Under the pieces are notes generated by a model. That model ran no database searches and was not told the DNA's origin. It worked only from the letters and a program-made list of their open reading frames with translations. From contig CBDEUM010000042.1 of assembly GCA_965242925.1 (NCBI GenBank), positions 33,807-97,806 on the forward strand: 64,000 nt of DNA. The letters are read 5' to 3'. A program made the position numbers and the translations under genes. The DNA comes from Roseibacillus sp. (lineage in GTDB: Bacteria; Verrucomicrobiota; Verrucomicrobiia; Verrucomicrobiales; Akkermansiaceae). Positions 16,049 to 24,033 of this stretch are shown piece by piece (position 1 is the first letter of the stretch; every line of letters begins with the position of its first letter).

Positions 16049-16336
16049 CGGAAATTCAAGTCTCAGACTCCAGATTTCCTGCTCCTGTTCCAGTTCAATC
16101 CGCAGCCAGATCTCCGCCAGTTCCTCATTTGTTCAAAAGGGAGGGATTTCGCCTTTCCGGAAGGTGGACAAAAAAACACCCGTCCAGCGGCCCTGCTGTC
16201 ACGATTTTCCGGAGCACCGGGTTTCTCGGACGCAGCCCTGCAAGCCCAACCGTAAGATCTCGAAAACCCTCTTCCCCATTTGCCCCTTGCCCAACTGTGT
16301 TCTGACCGTTCCCCTTGCCACCTGTCCCACCACCGC

Positions 16337-16945
16337 ATGGAAGAGCCGTCTCCAGCGATCACCAACGAGCTCCTCGAGCGCGTCAGGGCAGGTGACGAAT
16401 CGGCCAACCGGGACCTGGTGGAAATCCTCTATCCCACCGTGCGGGCCAATGTCCGCAACCACCTGCGGAGACAGGCTGATCACGACGACGTCTCCCAGGA
16501 AGTCTTCCTCAAGATCTTTCTCAAGATCGACCAGTACAAAGGGCCGCAACCCTTCGAGCACTGGGTTTCCCGCATCGCGGTGACCACCTGCTACGACTGG
16601 TTGCGCAAACACCGTGCCCGGCCCCTGGTGGCGTATTCGGATCTCACTGAGGCCGAAGTCGAGATCATCGAGAAGAGCCGCCCGGCCACCACCACCGGGA
16701 TTTCCGACACCCACCGGGAGCTCTTTTCGGGTCTCCTCGACAAACTGATCGCCACCCTCAACCCCCGGGAACAAATCGTGATCCGCCTCCTCGATCTGGA
16801 GGAACACTCTGTCCGGGAGATTTCTGAGCTCACCGGGTGGGGCGCCAGCAAGGTGAAAGTCACCGCCATGCGGGCCCGCCGAAAACTGGCCGAACAGCTC
16901 CAACGCCTGGAAACCAGCCACGAGCGGGAGGAGGGCGACCGCTGA
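16337..16945 (+). CDS. ECF-type RNA polymerase sigma-70 factor
   Basis: Region 2 'DDVSQEVFLKIF...FEHWVSRIAVTTCYDWLR'; region 4 'SVREISELTGWGASKVKVTAMRARRKL'. Confidence 0.93.
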   Translation: MEEPSPAITNELLERVRAGDESANRDLVEILYPTVRANVRNHLRRQADHDDVSQEVFLKIFLKIDQYKGPQPFEHWVSRIAVTTCYDWLRKHRARPLVAYSDLTEAEVEIIEKSRPATTTGISDTHRELFSGLLDKLIATLNPREQIVIRLLDLEEHSVREISELTGWGASKVKVTAMRARRKLAEQLQRLETSHEREEGDR

Positions 16946-16976
16946 ACTCCACCCAACTCCACCCAACTCCAAAACC

Positions 16977-17288
16977 ATGTCCGATCCTAACGAAGACAAC
17001 CACTGGAACCGCCTGGTCGATGCCGCCAGGGACGCAGGGGCCACCACAGACGATGCCCGGGAGCAAAAGGCTCCCTCCGCCTTCGTCTCCGGGGTGATCA
17101 CAATGCGGGAAGGACTATGGAAGTTTGCAACAACCGTACTCTGGCGCCGCTGGTCGCTGTTGGCGGCCCTTCTTGCAATTGCGCTCTACCTCATCTTCTA
17201 CTTTGTCATGAAATCAAATCCACCCGCCCGGGCTCCCACCCCGGCGCCGTCCCAAACTCTTCCCCAACCTCCCGACCCCGAACAATGA
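16977..17288 (+). CDS. Putative single-TM anti-sigma factor
   Basis: 103 aa, directly after the ECF gene, one TM (WSLLAALLAIALYLIFYFV) and a Pro-rich tail. Confidence 0.7.
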   Translation: MSDPNEDNHWNRLVDAARDAGATTDDAREQKAPSAFVSGVITMREGLWKFATTVLWRRWSLLAALLAIALYLIFYFVMKSNPPARAPTPAPSQTLPQPPDPEQ

Positions 17289-17848
17289 AGCCAACCTTCA
17301 AAGACTACCTGAACATTGTCTTGGCCCTTCTCGCCATTTTCCTCTGTGGCTACGGGATCGGATTCCTGTTGGGCGAACGCAAGGAGCAAGGCAATCAACC
17401 TCCCCCACCCGCTCCCTCCTCCCAGCCAGCCCCCATCGTCGATTGGGAGTCCTGGGAACGCTCCACATTCCAGACCATTGAGGGGGCCATTGGCGAACTG
17501 ACCCCGGAACAACGGCAATCCATCCGGCGCGAGGTCTCCGAGACCGCCAAGCGAATCAGAACCGCCCGGCAATCCGGTCGCAGGGAATTCCAGGCCCTCC
17601 ACCAACGTCTGAAGCAACATCTCACCCCGGAACAGCAAACCAGAGCTTCCGGGATCCTCCCCCAATTGAGGGAGAAATGGAATGAATTCACTTCGTTCAC
17701 CTCTCTAGGTGTAACCATGGGCAAATCGTCCTCGTCAGCCCTTATATGGAGGCTTTCTGCCCACTCGGTTAATCCCCCCCAGGGCCGGGAGGGCAGAGAG
17801 CTTCCCATTTTTCCGCCTTTTTTCATCAGCTCCTTCACAAATACTTAA
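17285..17848 (+). CDS. Membrane-anchored periplasmic helical protein (Spy/CpxP or heavy-metal-sensor-like); true stop may be about 17669
   Basis: ATG overlaps the upstream stop (ATGA). N-terminal TM, then two LTPEQ motifs. The last ~60 codons run over a promoter and a hairpin. Confidence 0.7.
   Translation: MKPTFKDYLNIVLALLAIFLCGYGIGFLLGERKEQGNQPPPPAPSSQPAPIVDWESWERSTFQTIEGAIGELTPEQRQSIRREVSETAKRIRTARQSGRREFQALHQRLKQHLTPEQQTRASGILPQLREKWNEFTSFTSLGVTMGKSSSSALIWRLSAHSVNPPQGREGRELPIFPPFFISSFTNT
17710..17736 (+). promoter_or_regulatory. ECF-type promoter copy 1 (TGTAACCAT-N14-CGTC)
   Basis: TGTAACCAT gggcaaatcgtcct CGTC; same motif and spacing at 18678 and 20642. Confidence 0.75.
17746..17823 (+). 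ncRNA. Candidate ECF-dependent sRNA or structured leader (long hairpin, C7 loop, U-tract)
   Basis: ATGG-AGGCTTTCTGCCC pairs with GGGCAGAGAGCTTCCCAT, CTCGGTT pairs with GGCCGGG, loop AATCCCCCCCAG, then TTTTCCGCCTTTTTT. Confidence 0.45.
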
Positions 17849-17905
17849 CGCAACCAGATCTCGACATGGAGGTTCCATTCAGGTGAAGATCAGTCCCCTA
17901 AGCGC

Positions 17906-18664
17906 ATGAGATTCGGTAACCTCATATTCGGTGTCGCCCTCCTTCTGCTGGCTGTCACCCTTGCCCTGACCATCACCTTCCGGAACGATCCCGAGGGTGC
18001 ATCGGCTGAACGGCTGCAAAACGACGCGACTTCCCCGGCACGCAGCATCGGAACCGCCGCGCCCCGGGGTTCCACCACTGCCCCCGTCGGTCGCCGCAAT
18101 CCTGTCAGATCGCCACGTAAAAAGCTCCCCGACGTGAACGAACTCGAGGTGGTCATGGACAACAGCCCGGCCACCCGGGACCTGAGCCCGACGCAACGCC
18201 AGGACATCGCCAAACGCGTCCCATGGGTTCAGCAAGCTGCCCTCTCCCGGCTTGGGAAGATGGCCGAGCGGCTGGACCTCTCCCCGATACAGCAGCACAA
18301 GGTCTTCCCACAACTGCTCCGGGCCACTACGGGCTATCACCCGGCCATGGTCATCACCTACCCTGCGGGAGCCTCCCTTCCCTCTGAGGAGCTTGCCGCC
18401 AACGAGAAGTCTCCCGATGAGGCCATCCACGACTCCCTCGATCCCGACCAGCAGGAAGACTTCCTTCAGCAGAAACTCGACGATCAGGCCTGGTGGGAGG
18501 AAATCGTTGCCCAGCTGGAGGACGATTTCGATGCCTCTGTTGCCGGCAACAACGGACCCGTGGCCGCCGGTCAGGCTCCCCCCGAGCAGGAAGCCGTTGC
18601 CGAGCCCCAACTCGAGCCCGAGCCACAGCAGGGCGTGAACCTCTTCGACCTCTTAAACGAATAA
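17906..18664 (+). CDS. Hypothetical membrane-anchored or secreted helical protein
   Basis: N-terminal hydrophobic helix, 'RLDLSPIQQ', 'LDPDQQE', acidic C-terminus. Confidence 0.7.
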   Translation: MRFGNLIFGVALLLLAVTLALTITFRNDPEGASAERLQNDATSPARSIGTAAPRGSTTAPVGRRNPVRSPRKKLPDVNELEVVMDNSPATRDLSPTQRQDIAKRVPWVQQAALSRLGKMAERLDLSPIQQHKVFPQLLRATTGYHPAMVITYPAGASLPSEELAANEKSPDEAIHDSLDPDQQEDFLQQKLDDQAWWEEIVAQLEDDFDASVAGNNGPVAAGQAPPEQEAVAEPQLEPEPQQGVNLFDLLNE

Positions 18665-18677
18665 AATCGACTTTGGG

Positions 18678-18704
18678 TGTAACCATTGTACCTCCAAGCT
18701 CGTC
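18678..18704 (+). promoter_or_regulatory. ECF-type promoter copy 2
   Basis: TGTAACCAT tgtacctccaagct CGTC, 44 nt before the EF-hand gene ATG. Confidence 0.8.
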
Positions 18705-18747
18705 GATCCCCTTAACCAGAGAACCTTTCCCGAAAGGCCCCAATAAA

Positions 18748-19437
18748 ATGAAGATGAAATACCTCCCTCTGATAACCATCGCTGTCGGCATCGGTTTCGC
18801 CAGTGCCGGACGTGAGCGAACCTTTGGTGACGGGAATCTTCCCGAAATCCTCGAACAGTTCGACCTCAACGACGACGGACAGATCGACGAAGAGGAGCGT
18901 CAGGCCGCCCGCGAAGCCCGCCGGGCTGCCCGGGCTGAACGCCGCGCTGCACACATCGCGGAATTTGACACAGATGCCGATGGCGAACTCTCCGACGAAG
19001 AGAGGGAAGGCGCCCGCGAAGCCCGCCGGGCCGCCCTTGAAGCCAAGCGCGAGGAAAAATTTGCTGAAATTGCAGGTGATGACGGATGCCTTGACTCCGA
19101 CGAATTTGCCGCCCTTCCCCCGCTCGAAGGCAGAGATCCGGAACGCTTGGCCGCCATCTTTGACCGACTGGATTCTGATGACGACGAATGCGTTGACCTT
19201 GAAGAATTCACCGCTCGCCTTCGTCATGGCCGTAAGCCGGGTGGACATCGTCCGCCGCAGCCGCCCACCCGTCCCGAGCCGCCCACCCGTCCCGAGCCAC
19301 CCACCCGTCCCGAGCCACCCACCCGTCCCGAGCCACCCAACCCGCCCGGGCCACCTGAGCGCCCCGACGACAACGATGACGATAATGATGAAGCTCCGGA
19401 TCCGCGCACGCCGCCCCGCTTTGGCGGCAGGGGGTAA
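18748..19437 (+). CDS. Secreted EF-hand protein 1 (4 loops) with Pro-rich tail
   Basis: Signal peptide MKMKYLPLITIAVGIGFASA; loops DLNDDGQIDEEE, DTDADGELSDEE, AGDDGCLDSDE, DSDDDECVDLEE. Confidence 0.88.
   Translation: MKMKYLPLITIAVGIGFASAGRERTFGDGNLPEILEQFDLNDDGQIDEEERQAAREARRAARAERRAAHIAEFDTDADGELSDEEREGAREARRAALEAKREEKFAEIAGDDGCLDSDEFAALPPLEGRDPERLAAIFDRLDSDDDECVDLEEFTARLRHGRKPGGHRPPQPPTRPEPPTRPEPPTRPEPPTRPEPPNPPGPPERPDDNDDDNDEAPDPRTPPRFGGRG
19261..19332 (+). repeat. 18-bp coding tandem repeat x4 (PPTRPE)
   Basis: CCRCCCACCCGTCCCGAG x4. Confidence 0.95.
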
Positions 19438-19470
19438 ATCTTTTCGGTTCTTTCCCATCCCCATCGCGAG

Positions 19471-19503
19471 GAGGCAACCTGAACCACGGGTTGCCTCTTT
19501 TTC
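19471..19503 (+). terminator. Intrinsic terminator
   Basis: GAGGCAACC-loop-GGTTGCCTC followed by TTTTT. Confidence 0.8.
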
Positions 19504-19532
19504 TTGAACAAGGACCGGTTCCTTCCGCCCCC

Positions 19533-20522
19533 ATGGCAAGACCCGTCTCCATTTTGTTATCCCTCCTGCTGCTCTCCGTGCTCGAAATTGCACGGGCCGA
19601 ACTGCTTTACTTCACCGATTTCGACGAGTTTCCCGAAGGTGATAACAAATGGGATGACTTTGATGGATGGCAGGCCAGCGACAATACCAGCGGAGCCCAA
19701 GCCATCGTAGCCGACCTCGTGGGGGGGGCCCTGGGAAACACTGCCACCCTGGGCTTCAACAGGCCCAACCGCGCCCTCACTACGGTGGCCAAATCGATCA
19801 ACTACGACCCCATCGCGACCGGCACGCCCCTCGTGTCCTTCAACCTCCTCTTCGGGATTGAGGACTCCACCGACTTCACCAACTACCGGCGCGACGATTT
19901 CTTCATCACCTTCTACAACAACCAGGGCGCGCCCCTGGCCGCCATCCGCATCTCCAATACCGACACCGACTACGGCTTCTGGTACCGCAATGGCAGCCCC
20001 CAGTCGTCAGGCTACGAGGAAATAGACACCGGCCTGGATTTTATCCAGGGCGAACTCCATGAGCTGACCGGAATCATCGACTTCGAATCCAACCGCTGGA
20101 CTGCGGAGATCGACGGCCTTCCGCTCTTTATCGACGTGGCCTTCAATGGCACCAATCAAGCGCTCTACTTCGGATTCATTGCTATCGAGTGGCAGATCGA
20201 CGAGGGATCTCCCGGCAGATACGGTGACAACTTCCTCCTGCTCTCCGATCTGCGCATTGAAACAGTGGAAGACCCGCCCCCGCCAGTTGTGATTGACTCC
20301 ATTGGCCACGATGCGAGAGGTGATATCCGGATTTCCTGGCAGGCCACTCCCGGGTTCAACTACGCCGTGGAATACTCCGATGACCTCCTGAACTGGCAGG
20401 GCGACCTCCCGTCCTCGACCTTCACTTCCCCTCCTGCCCTTCAGCCGTTCATCTTCACCGATACTACCGTCCTGCAGGCAGGAGGGCGCTATTATCGCGT
20501 CCGCCAAACCCGGGCCGAATAA
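19533..20522 (+). CDS. Secreted beta-rich hypothetical protein with Verrucomicrobia-type C-terminal domain
   Basis: Signal peptide; C-terminal 'ISWQATPGFNYAVEYSDDLLNW...FTD...RYYRV'. Confidence 0.75.
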   Translation: MARPVSILLSLLLLSVLEIARAELLYFTDFDEFPEGDNKWDDFDGWQASDNTSGAQAIVADLVGGALGNTATLGFNRPNRALTTVAKSINYDPIATGTPLVSFNLLFGIEDSTDFTNYRRDDFFITFYNNQGAPLAAIRISNTDTDYGFWYRNGSPQSSGYEEIDTGLDFIQGELHELTGIIDFESNRWTAEIDGLPLFIDVAFNGTNQALYFGFIAIEWQIDEGSPGRYGDNFLLLSDLRIETVEDPPPPVVIDSIGHDARGDIRISWQATPGFNYAVEYSDDLLNWQGDLPSSTFTSPPALQPFIFTDTTVLQAGGRYYRVRQTRAE

Positions 20523-20641
20523 GAACGGAAGGAGCCTCTCCAAATCCCCTAAAAGGGCCATCTCTCGTCCTGGCTCCAACCCCGAAACGGGTTATGCGCC
20601 AGCGGCAATTCTCCAAAACCCTGGCAAAATCCCTGACAAAA

Positions 20642-20668
20642 TGTAACCATCCCTCCGCCACTCCCGTC
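20642..20668 (+). promoter_or_regulatory. ECF-type promoter copy 3
   Basis: TGTAACCAT ccctccgccactcc CGTC, 64 nt before the second EF-hand gene. Confidence 0.8.
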
Positions 20669-20731
20669 TATCCCCTTGAAAGACACGGCAGCAGGCCCCG
20701 TCTCACTGAAACCTCAAGCACAAAAAGAACC

Positions 20732-21343
20732 ATGAAGATCAAATACCTCCCGATCCTCGCAATTGCCCTGGGCATAGGGATCGCAACCACCATCGCCGGA
20801 CATCGCACCTTCGGTGACGGCAAACTCCCCGAAATTCTTGAACAGTTTGACCTCAACGAGGACGGCGTGATTGACGAAGAAGAACGCCAGGCGGCCAAGG
20901 AAGCCCGCCGTGCCGCGCGTAGCGAACGCCGTGCCGAGCACATTGCGGAATTCGATACTGACGGCGACGGCGAACTCTCCGACGAAGAAAAGGAAGCCGC
21001 CAGAGACGCCCGGCGCGCTGCCCTCCAAGCCAAGCGAGAGGAAAAATTTGCCGAGATCGCAGGTGAAGACGGCAGTCTTGATCTTGACGAATTCGCTGCC
21101 CTGGCTCCCTTTGAAGGTGCGGATTCCGAGCGCGTGGCTGGCATCTTTGCCCGCCTGGATGATGACGAAGACGGCGCTGTCACTCTTGAGGAATTTGGCT
21201 CCCGCCTGCGTCATCATGGACGCCGACCCCGCCACCACGGCCCCCGCCACCACGGCCCCCGCCATCGTCCCCACCACCATCGCCGAGGCGGTGGCGAAGG
21301 CGACGAAGATGACGAAGGCGAAGGCGAAGGCGACGACGCCTGA
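20732..21343 (+). CDS. Secreted EF-hand protein 2 (paralog) with His/Arg-rich then acidic tail
   Basis: Signal peptide MKIKYLPILAIALGIGIATTIA; loops DLNEDGVIDEEE, DTDGDGELSDEE, AGEDGSLDLDE, DDDEDGAVTLEE; tail RHHGPRHHGPRHRPHHH. Confidence 0.88.
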   Translation: MKIKYLPILAIALGIGIATTIAGHRTFGDGKLPEILEQFDLNEDGVIDEEERQAAKEARRAARSERRAEHIAEFDTDGDGELSDEEKEAARDARRAALQAKREEKFAEIAGEDGSLDLDEFAALAPFEGADSERVAGIFARLDDDEDGAVTLEEFGSRLRHHGRRPRHHGPRHHGPRHRPHHHRRGGGEGDEDDEGEGEGDDA

Positions 21344-21380
21344 TTCCCGCAGACCGATAGTAGTTCCAGAAAATTTAATC

Positions 21381-21414
21381 AGAGGCGGCCCGACAGTGGG
21401 CTGCCTCTTTTTTT
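21381..21414 (+). terminator. Intrinsic terminator
   Basis: AGAGGCGGCCC-GACAGT-GGGCTGCCTCT followed by a T-run. Confidence 0.85.
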
Positions 21415-23850: not shown

Positions 23851-23874
23851 AAATGTGACGATATCGTAACATTT
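23851..23874. promoter_or_regulatory. 24-bp near-perfect palindrome upstream of porin (putative operator)
   Basis: AAATGTGACGATATCGTAACATTT, one mismatched pair. Confidence 0.55.
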
Positions 23875-24033
23875 TTGACTATTCGCGCGTCGTGAGTCCC
23901 TTCCGCAAGCTGTCCCGGAGATACGCCCTGCCTGAGTCATGGACAGCGTCACTCAGCGCCGATAGATGCAACACACGGATATAAGCGGTTACAGGTCTCA
24001 TGTGACCCTCCCTTCACGGCCCTGAAGCAATCC

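Follow-up and report, generated by a model that had tools for sequence, protein, structure and literature searches.

A verrucomicrobial ECF sigma factor with a candidate promoter and exported EF-hand proteins among its predicted targets

What does a sigma factor encoded beside two small membrane proteins and two secreted EF-hand genes control, and which signal would set it free? We addressed this for positions 16,337 to 21,414 of a 64,000-nucleotide (nt) stretch (the window; contig CBDEUM010000042.1 of assembly GCA_965242925.1, positions 33,807 to 97,806 of the forward strand) from a marine Roseibacillus-type Verrucomicrobium, whose 90%-complete genome comprises 4,581,007 bases. This segment encodes a sigma factor of the extracytoplasmic function (ECF) type, a 103-amino-acid (aa) protein with a single transmembrane (TM) helix, the helical membrane proteins p3 and p4, the exported EF-hand proteins EF1 and EF2, and a lectin-like protein, p6. 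A sequence-only reading had described a self-contained module with three bipartite promoter boxes. Judged by their conservation, these TGTAAC/CGTC boxes are very likely the cognate promoter of the ECF sigma factor. The module is not self-contained: two conserved remote targets lie on other contigs, and two further conserved genes inside it, p4 and p6, had been overlooked.

The sigma gene (16337..16945, plus strand) encodes 202 aa that match Pfam Sigma70_r2 and r4_2 above cut-off and TIGR02937 at 95 bits (cut-off 42.9). No sigma3 hit was found, the domain composition of an ECF (group IV) factor, so the assignment made from the sequence holds. The genome has a single sigma factor of this family (E 1.8e-98; next 2.4e-27). 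At E<=1e-30, matches occur in 32 of 61 genomes and in all 19 other genomes of the genus. Our phylum-wide locus set, the best 80 of 501 confirmed matches, contains relatives from across Verrucomicrobiota (Haloferula, Luteolibacter, Verrucomicrobium and Opitutaceae), the closest named ones being labelled Roseibacillus sp. or Akkermansiaceae; many of its loci lie on short contigs, and about nine repeat genomes already present in that genome search. Within this set the three-gene core of sigma factor, 103-aa protein and p3 occurs phylum-wide, and p4, EF and p6 genes were seen solely in Verrucomicrobiales-type loci.

The three boxes, with TGTAAC at -35 and CGTC at -10, lie on the plus strand at 17710..17736 (box 1), 18678..18704 (box 2) and 20642..20668 (box 3). 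Their equal spacing, dissimilar spacers, following CCCTT and the 44- and 64-nt distances from boxes 2 and 3 to the EF-hand ATGs (18748 and 20732) are all as first read from the sequence. The exact pattern TGTAACCAT-N14-CGTC matches three times in the whole 4.58-Mb genome, always inside the module, versus 0 matches in 100 shuffles, a circular test in that the 13-base pattern was derived from those same three copies. The looser TGTAAC-N17-CGTC with one mismatch gave 4 matches against a shuffle mean of 1.31, and 5 of 100 shuffles reached 4. Because the exact pattern came from the window copies, we built a fairer matrix, trained on 55 unique sites from relatives only with the window sites excluded. 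In this genome-wide scan, a check that the sequence-only reading had proposed, the three boxes rank first to third (27.2, 26.2 and 23.7 bits, box 3 highest), and one shuffled genome yielded 0 sites above 22 bits. Genome sites at 16-20 bits are about as frequent as in the shuffled genome. No box lies upstream of the genome's seven ECF-like genes or of its six other EF-hand-like open reading frames (ORFs).

Several further sites were set aside. A near-match at 23865-23891 (plus strand, one mismatch) scores 13.0 bits, which is background, and has no homologue among the fetched loci; it is intergenic, ahead of a porin gene, on the opposite strand. Long open frames enclose sites C29:172112, C38:230629 and C39:30263, and no convincing gene follows C9:7847 or C12:24931.

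Conservation among relatives ties the boxes to the sigma factor. Of the 79 sigma orthologues with enough flank, 45 have a GTAAC-N16/17-CGTC core in the 300 nt upstream, nearly always at -35 to -100, compared with 0/79 on the reverse strand and 23/15,800 in shuffles; these counts come from non-independent kin and show conservation, not probabilities. The same core precedes 29 of 35 neighbouring EF-hand genes, so the motif is conserved where the proposed regulon needed it. Three of the six box-less EF genes are fused third paralogues whose true start is further upstream, behind a box. The core is found upstream of p4 in 9/37 loci and of p6 in 1/30. In genome G063 it also precedes an EF-hand gene that is not linked to the sigma gene, about 1.3 Mb away. 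Within the genus, box 1 keeps the strict core in 13 of the 14 loci that reach this place, the remaining one having a single-mismatch variant; box 2 is strict in 11 of 13 loci holding EF1, with one variant and one locus without; and box 3 is kept. We therefore regard the predicted wiring of promoter to sigma factor as highly probable, in keeping with the earlier reading of the boxes as ECF promoters.

A bipartite promoter ahead of the sigma factor's own operon, typical of the 45 orthologues, has decayed in the window. At 16281..16307 (plus strand) stands TGCCCC-N17-GACC, where sister lineages have TGTAAC-N17-CGTC with the same flanks; the site aligns with intact ones in L036, L038 and L039. In a quick tree of 101 rows, from which nine duplicate or fragment loci and frames that were short or contained X had been left out, one weakly supported clade (support 81) unites the 13 genus rows without this box, window included, beside three rows that keep it. 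With this box decayed, the circuit of the window lineage would run without positive feedback. A long-branch clade of sigma paralogues (L060, L061, L062) instead carries GTTAC-N16/17-CGTT upstream (3/3) together with a changed sigma4 helix, by sequence a natural specificity switch; these paralogues keep the same anti-sigma family as the main clade.

The 103-aa protein (16977..17288, plus strand) is a predicted single-TM anti-sigma factor without a Pfam family and with an invariant Trp10, and its gene adjoins that of the sigma factor in 71 of 80 loci. The gap from the sigma stop to the anti-sigma start contains a short tandem repeat, AACTCCACCC, at 16945-16975. In a complex model run on alignments built in this analysis, anti-sigma residues 1-58 with sigma residues 6-194 score 0.64, versus 0.01 for the best control; of the 157 solved complexes 116 reach that mark, as do 2 of the 215 mismatched pairs. 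The runs share at least 85% of contacts, and the partner has a predicted local distance difference test score (pLDDT) of 72. The predicted interface covers both sigma2 and sigma4: Trp10 sits in the tightest sigma4 contacts, and the second helix contacts sigma2. This predicted binding agrees with the anti-sigma role first proposed from the sequence, and the model makes an anti-sigma factor of the CnrY kind the probable identity of the protein. Its profile found no CnrY sequence match among PDB chains and no informative PDB or Atlas hit, and it gathers 674 unnamed representatives at E<=0.001. The periplasmic part is a short Pro-rich tail with no carbohydrate-binding domain.

The next gene encodes p3 (17285..17669, plus strand; 73/80 loci), a membrane-anchored helical protein with two LTxEQ motifs and the putative periplasmic partner of the anti-sigma factor. 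In the window assembly its frame runs to 17848 and yields 187 aa because of one extra base near 17645, which is absent from one contig assembled from an RNA run (X1). The genus orthologues listed measure 124-130 aa, a point that the sequence-only reading had missed; its likening of the LTPEQ protein to the LTxxQ family is weakly upheld. Of the 23 members aligned, 13 match Metal_resist and 7 match LTXXQ at E<=0.05, with the window copy below the gathering score; in tests for Spy-family membership the best Pfam E-value was 3.3e-5 (weak), and Spy in the PDB reached E 0.43. Only M1, G22, G26, L72, Q76 and Q117 are invariant columns. No His, Met or Cys is invariant; in the single column with His, 12 of 23 rows carry it.

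Downstream, p4 (17906..18664, plus strand; 36/80 loci) is a 252-aa single-TM protein with two LTxxQ-like motifs. Its profile matches that of p3 (HHalign 95.5%, pairwise E 1.5e-8), which identifies it, at the level of sequence profiles, as a distant paralogue. Both alignments show paired LTxxQ motifs in a helical domain, the motif pattern of Spy/CpxP/ZraP proteins; Pfam support for LTXXQ-type families is weak for p4. The sequence relatives of p4 are hypothetical clusters from Verrucomicrobiota only, and fold searches with its model came back without a match (Foldseek best E 2.0; VIA best Z 4.8), an outcome that does not establish a new fold. A possible housekeeping (sigma70-type) promoter with a permissive -10 pattern, TCGACA-N18-GAAGAT, precedes p4 at 17861..17890 (plus strand). 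TCGA(C/T)A is present in 14/14 genus loci and the 18-nt spacer to xAxxxT in 13/14, so the element is possibly p4's own promoter; a sigma70 scanner found 0 promoter-like sites. A remote p4-like protein is encoded on the minus strand of G000:C13 (ORF 156589 on the reversed contig, E 5.7e-13) and has no box upstream.

Boxes 2 and 3 stand before the EF-hand genes. EF1 (18748..19437, plus strand) is an exported protein of 229 aa with a signal peptide judged by eye and Pfam EF-hand above cut-off, and EF2 (20732..21343, plus strand) is an exported Pfam EF-hand paralogue of 203 aa with a His/acid-rich tail. The two are 74% identical. The 12-residue loop D-x-[DN]-x-[DNS]-G-x-[ILV]-x-x-x-E occurs three times per protein, in EF1 at residues 39, 74 and 142 with a degenerate loop at 108; one EF1 loop has Glu at position 6. 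The earlier description of paralogous four-EF-hand proteins thus needs adjusting to three canonical or near-canonical loops and one degenerate loop each. From these loops EF1 and EF2 are predicted to bind calcium. Each gene is closed by its own intrinsic terminator, as had been read from the sequence: EF1 at 19468..19500 (plus strand, z score -3.75, then a T run) and EF2 at 21381..21414 (plus strand, 12-bp stem plus T run, z -4.34). An EF gene accompanies the sigma gene at 30 of 80 loci, the synteny that the sequence-only reading had asked about.

Membership of the lanmodulin family is not supported for either protein. Against NCBIfam NF053806 their scores are 21 and 23.9 bits (cut-off 135); Pro at loop position 2 occurs in 0/40 loops of 14 EF homologues and in none of the window loops, and no pyrroloquinoline quinone (PQQ) alcohol dehydrogenase exceeds the cut-off in the 90%-complete genome. 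Some lanmodulins lack the loop proline, which is typical rather than universal according to the available text (PMC13128445). The C-terminal tails vary: EF1 has PTRPEP repeats (19262-19360), EF2 has His-rich and acidic repeats (21225-21343), and repeat lengths differ among RNA-run contigs. A third EF-hand gene, absent from the window, occurs at L033 6910-8109 and after p6 in L042 and L043; it fuses an N-terminal beta-rich domain to the EF-hands via long acidic repeats of PE or GDDAGDND units and follows a GGTAAC/AGTAAC box variant.

Between EF1 and EF2 lies p6 (19533..20522, plus strand), an exported protein predicted to have a ConA-like lectin/glucanase jelly-roll fold followed by a small C-terminal beta domain. 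Its model (pLDDT 86.9) superimposes on sialidase BT_1020 with Z 19.0 and a root-mean-square deviation of 3.0 Å over 183 aligned residues. It is present in 29 of 80 loci, nearly always directly 3' of an EF gene.

Box 1 is followed by a structured RNA, in line with the small RNA output suggested earlier. A hairpin with a C-rich loop at 17748..17805 (plus strand, z -4.46) begins at about the predicted +1 and is a candidate small RNA or 5' leader. Across 15 sequences, 91% of stem cells are paired, and 8 of 20 pairs have changed on both sides; covariation exceeds all 500 shuffles and all slid controls, although related sequences can beat such shuffles. The alignment holds 36 G-U against 2 A-C cells, an excess that points to a plus-strand RNA. 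No Rfam covariance model matched the hairpin at E<=10. A model of the hairpin itself, run on 101 family genomes, matched in this genus alone, where it also recovered two copies outside its training. The idea of a dispersed repeat was rejected, as the genome holds a single copy.

We slightly favour a separate small RNA, since p4 has its own possible, conserved sigma70-like element; the unpaired C-rich loop is also kept in all intact copies, and a box stands ahead of p4 in only the 9/37 loci mentioned. Less probable, though possible in our view, is that the hairpin belongs to the p4 mRNA as a 5' leader that stabilizes or attenuates it, or that it acts as a terminator and shields p4 from the sigma operon; other readings share a small remainder. 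This alternative draws on the stem lacking a conserved U-run after it in several relatives, and on G006 and G008, in which a CotH gene without a second promoter block follows box 1 and a loop-shortened hairpin at a distance of about 120 nt. Pairing of the loop with module translation starts gave no consistent duplex in 14 loci, and the module genes lack a clear Shine-Dalgarno sequence, which weakens an anti-Shine-Dalgarno role. In L032 (G006:C513, 35-2852, minus strand) the CotH-kinase/LTD gene replaces p4 behind the sigma operon; in L189 (G008:C20, 1360-3857) the box 1/hairpin/CotH unit is a second copy and carries a p3 tail.

Motif lists over 20 genus genomes contained recurring remote sites with variable spacers, around which 40 regions were retrieved; the orthologue sets were then defined by protein searches independent of the motif. 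An exported M10 metalloprotease of about 1,030 aa, a matrixin with HEHGHGLGLEH, occurs in 9 of 20 genomes, with a strict box 94-129 nt upstream in 9/9, and a 39% identical paralogue is box-less. A PA14/DUF1800 gene (about 1,520 aa; DUF, domain of unknown function), followed by DUF1501, has the box at 8 of 10 assessable genes; one of the other two has a single mismatch and one is without, and a further place was dropped where the contig ends. In the window genome these boxes lie at C14:387864 (M10) and C33:72281 (PA14/DUF1800-DUF1501 operon). Domains on the remote targets include PA14, CHRD, TSP3 and PPC. The DUF1800 and DUF1501 genes at G000:C33:72397-78100 (L240) are each frameshifted and are intact in G008 and G012; because they too are frame-broken here, these frameshifts and the extra base in p3 are likely assembly indels.

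Other box-associated places are less regular. In L177 and L178 (G016:C36, G004:C6), genomes in which the matrixin was not found, a box stands ahead of a gene for an exported protein that has seven bacterial TSP3 repeats, possibly a further regulon member. At L192 (G014:C60:342) it precedes a truncated exported protein with no Pfam hit, which looks YHYH-like, and at L191 (G014:C34:55714) it follows a p6-like 3' end with no ORF of at least 90 aa behind. The idea that DUF1800/DUF1501 genes stand beside ECF/Metal_resist genes in Proteobacteria was not used, a sigma gene being nearby in 0/5 plasmid loci. DUF1800 is mentioned without a function in mineralizing organisms in the accessible text of two papers (PMC12981691, PMC7563939), which we do not count as support.

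RNA evidence consists of assembled contigs from 4 of 24 runs listed as holding the stretch, most of them marine. Contigs from several studies cover p4, EF1 and EF2. Contig X1 reaches 26 of 30 bins, flanking genes among them, and could contain DNA; the contigs of runs X2-X4 leave the hairpin, anti-sigma and p3 genes uncovered, a non-coverage that carries no weight. Two contig starts, 18710 and 20665, fall near predicted transcription starts; because others begin at 18768, 18879, 20619 and 20637, no start site is claimed.

The layout itself is already in print. In the published description of ECF290s2, sigma is followed by a single-TM putative anti-sigma without Pfam family (+1) and a membrane Metal_resist protein (+2), with an EF-hand neighbour and CGT in the -10 (Casas-Pastor et al. 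2021, PMC7826278). The window has the same gene layout, its p3 matching Metal_resist below the gathering score. In contrast, ECF290s2 is described from Proteobacteria and Planctomycetes only, on computational grounds, with a low-information ACGG -35 element where the window has TGTAAC, and the available description does not include p4, lectin, remote protease/DUF1800 or RNA. ECF03s10 and ECF111 likewise combine a 1-TM anti-sigma (+1) with an LTXXQ or Metal_resist protein (+2), and ECF03 includes 2.28% Verrucomicrobia; their predicted promoters differ (TTAAACC and TTGAACCT/GTCTAAA), and no EF-hand output is listed in the portion available (PMC7826278). ECF120 (TGTAACAAA/TCGTCAT) and ECF16 SigF (GTAACC-CGTA) have nearly the same -35/-10 core as the window boxes but different partners, DUF4252 proteins and a 6-TM DUF1109 anti-sigma, respectively, so the common core does not imply a common group.

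The sequence-only reading had likened the operon to CnrH-CnrY-CnrX of Cupriavidus metallidurans (ECF291). In the available account, that system has a short TM anti-sigma wrapping the sigma factor and a membrane-anchored helical periplasmic partner (PMC6851896), and the likeness persists in the predicted CnrY-like anti-sigma; it fails at p3, in which no CnrX-type His/Met site is conserved. The gene orders also differ (ECF291, YXH, with anti-sigma at -2 and sensor at -1; window, sigma, anti-sigma, p3), and there is no efflux cluster like CnrCBA among the conserved neighbours here. The sigma profile scores 59.5 bits against CnrH and 90 against RpoE. In Caulobacter vibrioides, the ECF factor SigV activates the adjacent cabp gene for a Sec-exported EF-hand protein, which is induced by EGTA and acid (PMC13171946). 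There the 133-aa CaBP gene lies upstream of sigV, an anti-sigma is proposed but not identified, and the accessible text mentions no regulon, RNA or Verrucomicrobia. Within the open-licence literature we found no verrucomicrobial description of such a circuit, as the sequence-only reading had supposed, nor an ECF regulon with defined promoter from this phylum. The novelty is thus a variant of the known sigma/anti-sigma/Spy-like-partner layout with a defined regulon and an Rfam-unmatched RNA, ECF groups having been compared by description; published ECF group tables may already assign these sigma factors.

The best overall explanation, and in our judgement a rather probable one, is a calcium/envelope-state sigma circuit. 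A Verrucomicrobiota-wide ECF sigma factor would be kept inactive on the inner membrane by the CnrY-like anti-sigma and a Spy-like partner and, once released, would transcribe from TGTAAC-N16/17-CGTC the genes for exported putative calcium-binding proteins and the hairpin RNA, p6 probably being read through from the EF promoter. The trigger would be failing periplasmic calcium or calcium-dependent protein folding, with calcium limitation or a related envelope stress as the signal; p3, perhaps with p4, may change conformation and so pass it to the anti-sigma in the manner of CnrX, and EF1 and EF2 may serve as periplasmic calcium buffers or chaperones. EF-hand, DxDxDG/TSP3-like repeat, M10, PA14 and legume-type lectin families use calcium. 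The box-linked targets are exported proteins, most of them from families taken as calcium users; this, together with the Caulobacter EGTA/acid precedent, favours calcium/envelope state as the signal, at about even chances.

A number of observations weigh against this explanation. The p3 alignment contains no evident ligand site for any ion, and the score of the sigma/anti-sigma model may reflect resemblance to ECF/anti-sigma complexes already solved, CnrH-CnrY for instance. Box matches in three distant genomes are no more frequent than control matches, and two of these genomes have no EF gene behind any box match; two box matches there head the sigma gene itself. Opitutales keep locally just the three-gene core. 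The two EF2-covering RNA-run contigs that begin at 20619 and 20637 have their starts upstream of box 3, and in that stretch read-through or DNA therefore contributes. Scores of 17-19 bits place the remote sites inside the shuffled-genome background, and the remote targets, first spotted in motif lists, rest on conservation among non-independent kin. Calcium is abundant in seawater, which speaks against plain calcium shortage as an everyday signal. The Caulobacter promoters, in the text available, have GGAA-type -35 elements and are also SigT-dependent (PMC13171946).

The same wiring could serve a general envelope or unfolded-protein response of the Cpx/Spy kind, in which misfolded exported proteins titrate p3/p4, acidic chaperones and a protease are the outputs, and calcium is structural only. 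The paired LTxxQ motifs without metal ligands in p3 and p4, the secreted protease within the regulon, the best solved-structure scores of the sigma profile (RpoE/AlgU/SigW) and the union of 1-TM anti-sigma and LTXXQ proteins in ECF03s10 and ECF111, as described (PMC7826278), fit this reading. However, the boxes examined have no recognizable classical periplasmic chaperone or DegP-type gene behind them, and the EF-hand family is the most constant target; we consider this response unlikely. Alternatively, cells meeting particles or algal gels with a calcium-cross-linked matrix might use the sigma factor to turn on cell-surface lectin, PA14, protease and CotH-type proteins for attachment or polysaccharide foraging. 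The p6 fold, the remote-target domains, the recruitment of CotH genes behind box 1 in two genomes and the mostly marine RNA runs are compatible with this, but the Pro-rich anti-sigma tail offers no carbohydrate-binding domain and no TonB-dependent receptor or glycoside hydrolase was recognized among the targets examined, which leaves it quite improbable.

Least probable, and very much so, is the CnrYXH-type transition-metal or lanthanide sensor of the sequence-only reading. It can claim the three-part layout, the weak Metal_resist matches of p3, the His-rich tail of EF2 and the existence of proline-less lanmodulins (PMC13128445), by which standard the EF-hands may yet bind lanthanides. Against it, the CnrX nickel ligands His42, His46, Glu63, His119 and Met123, as given in the accessible account (PMC6851896), find no invariant His, Met or Cys in p3 to match them, the module showed no efflux genes, and the lanmodulin scores, loops and PQQ search all came out negative.

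Returning to the calcium/envelope-state circuit, a bolder version, doubtful as a whole, would make this a phylum-wide unclassified ECF group dedicated to periplasmic calcium sensing. A p3/p4 heteromer would read calcium, possibly via apo EF-hand protein, and free the sigma factor from a new anti-sigma family to run a surface programme that depends on calcium (EF-hands, lectin, matrixin, DUF1800/DUF1501, CotH); marine Roseibacillus would have lost positive autoregulation and gained the C-loop small RNA as a repressive arm.

The analysis supplies a sigma factor, a predicted anti-sigma factor, a promoter of high information content and five to six target units in a little-studied phylum, a circuit testable with heterologous reporters without culture of the host. 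It ties DUF1800, DUF1501 and two unnamed families, p4 and the anti-sigma, to one circuit. The available Caulobacter account (PMC13171946) leaves open how periplasmic EF-hand proteins are connected to ECF activation, and the circuit provides a candidate for that connection. Within a single genus, the locus records regulon evolution, in which autoregulation was lost, a structured RNA gained and a CotH gene captured.

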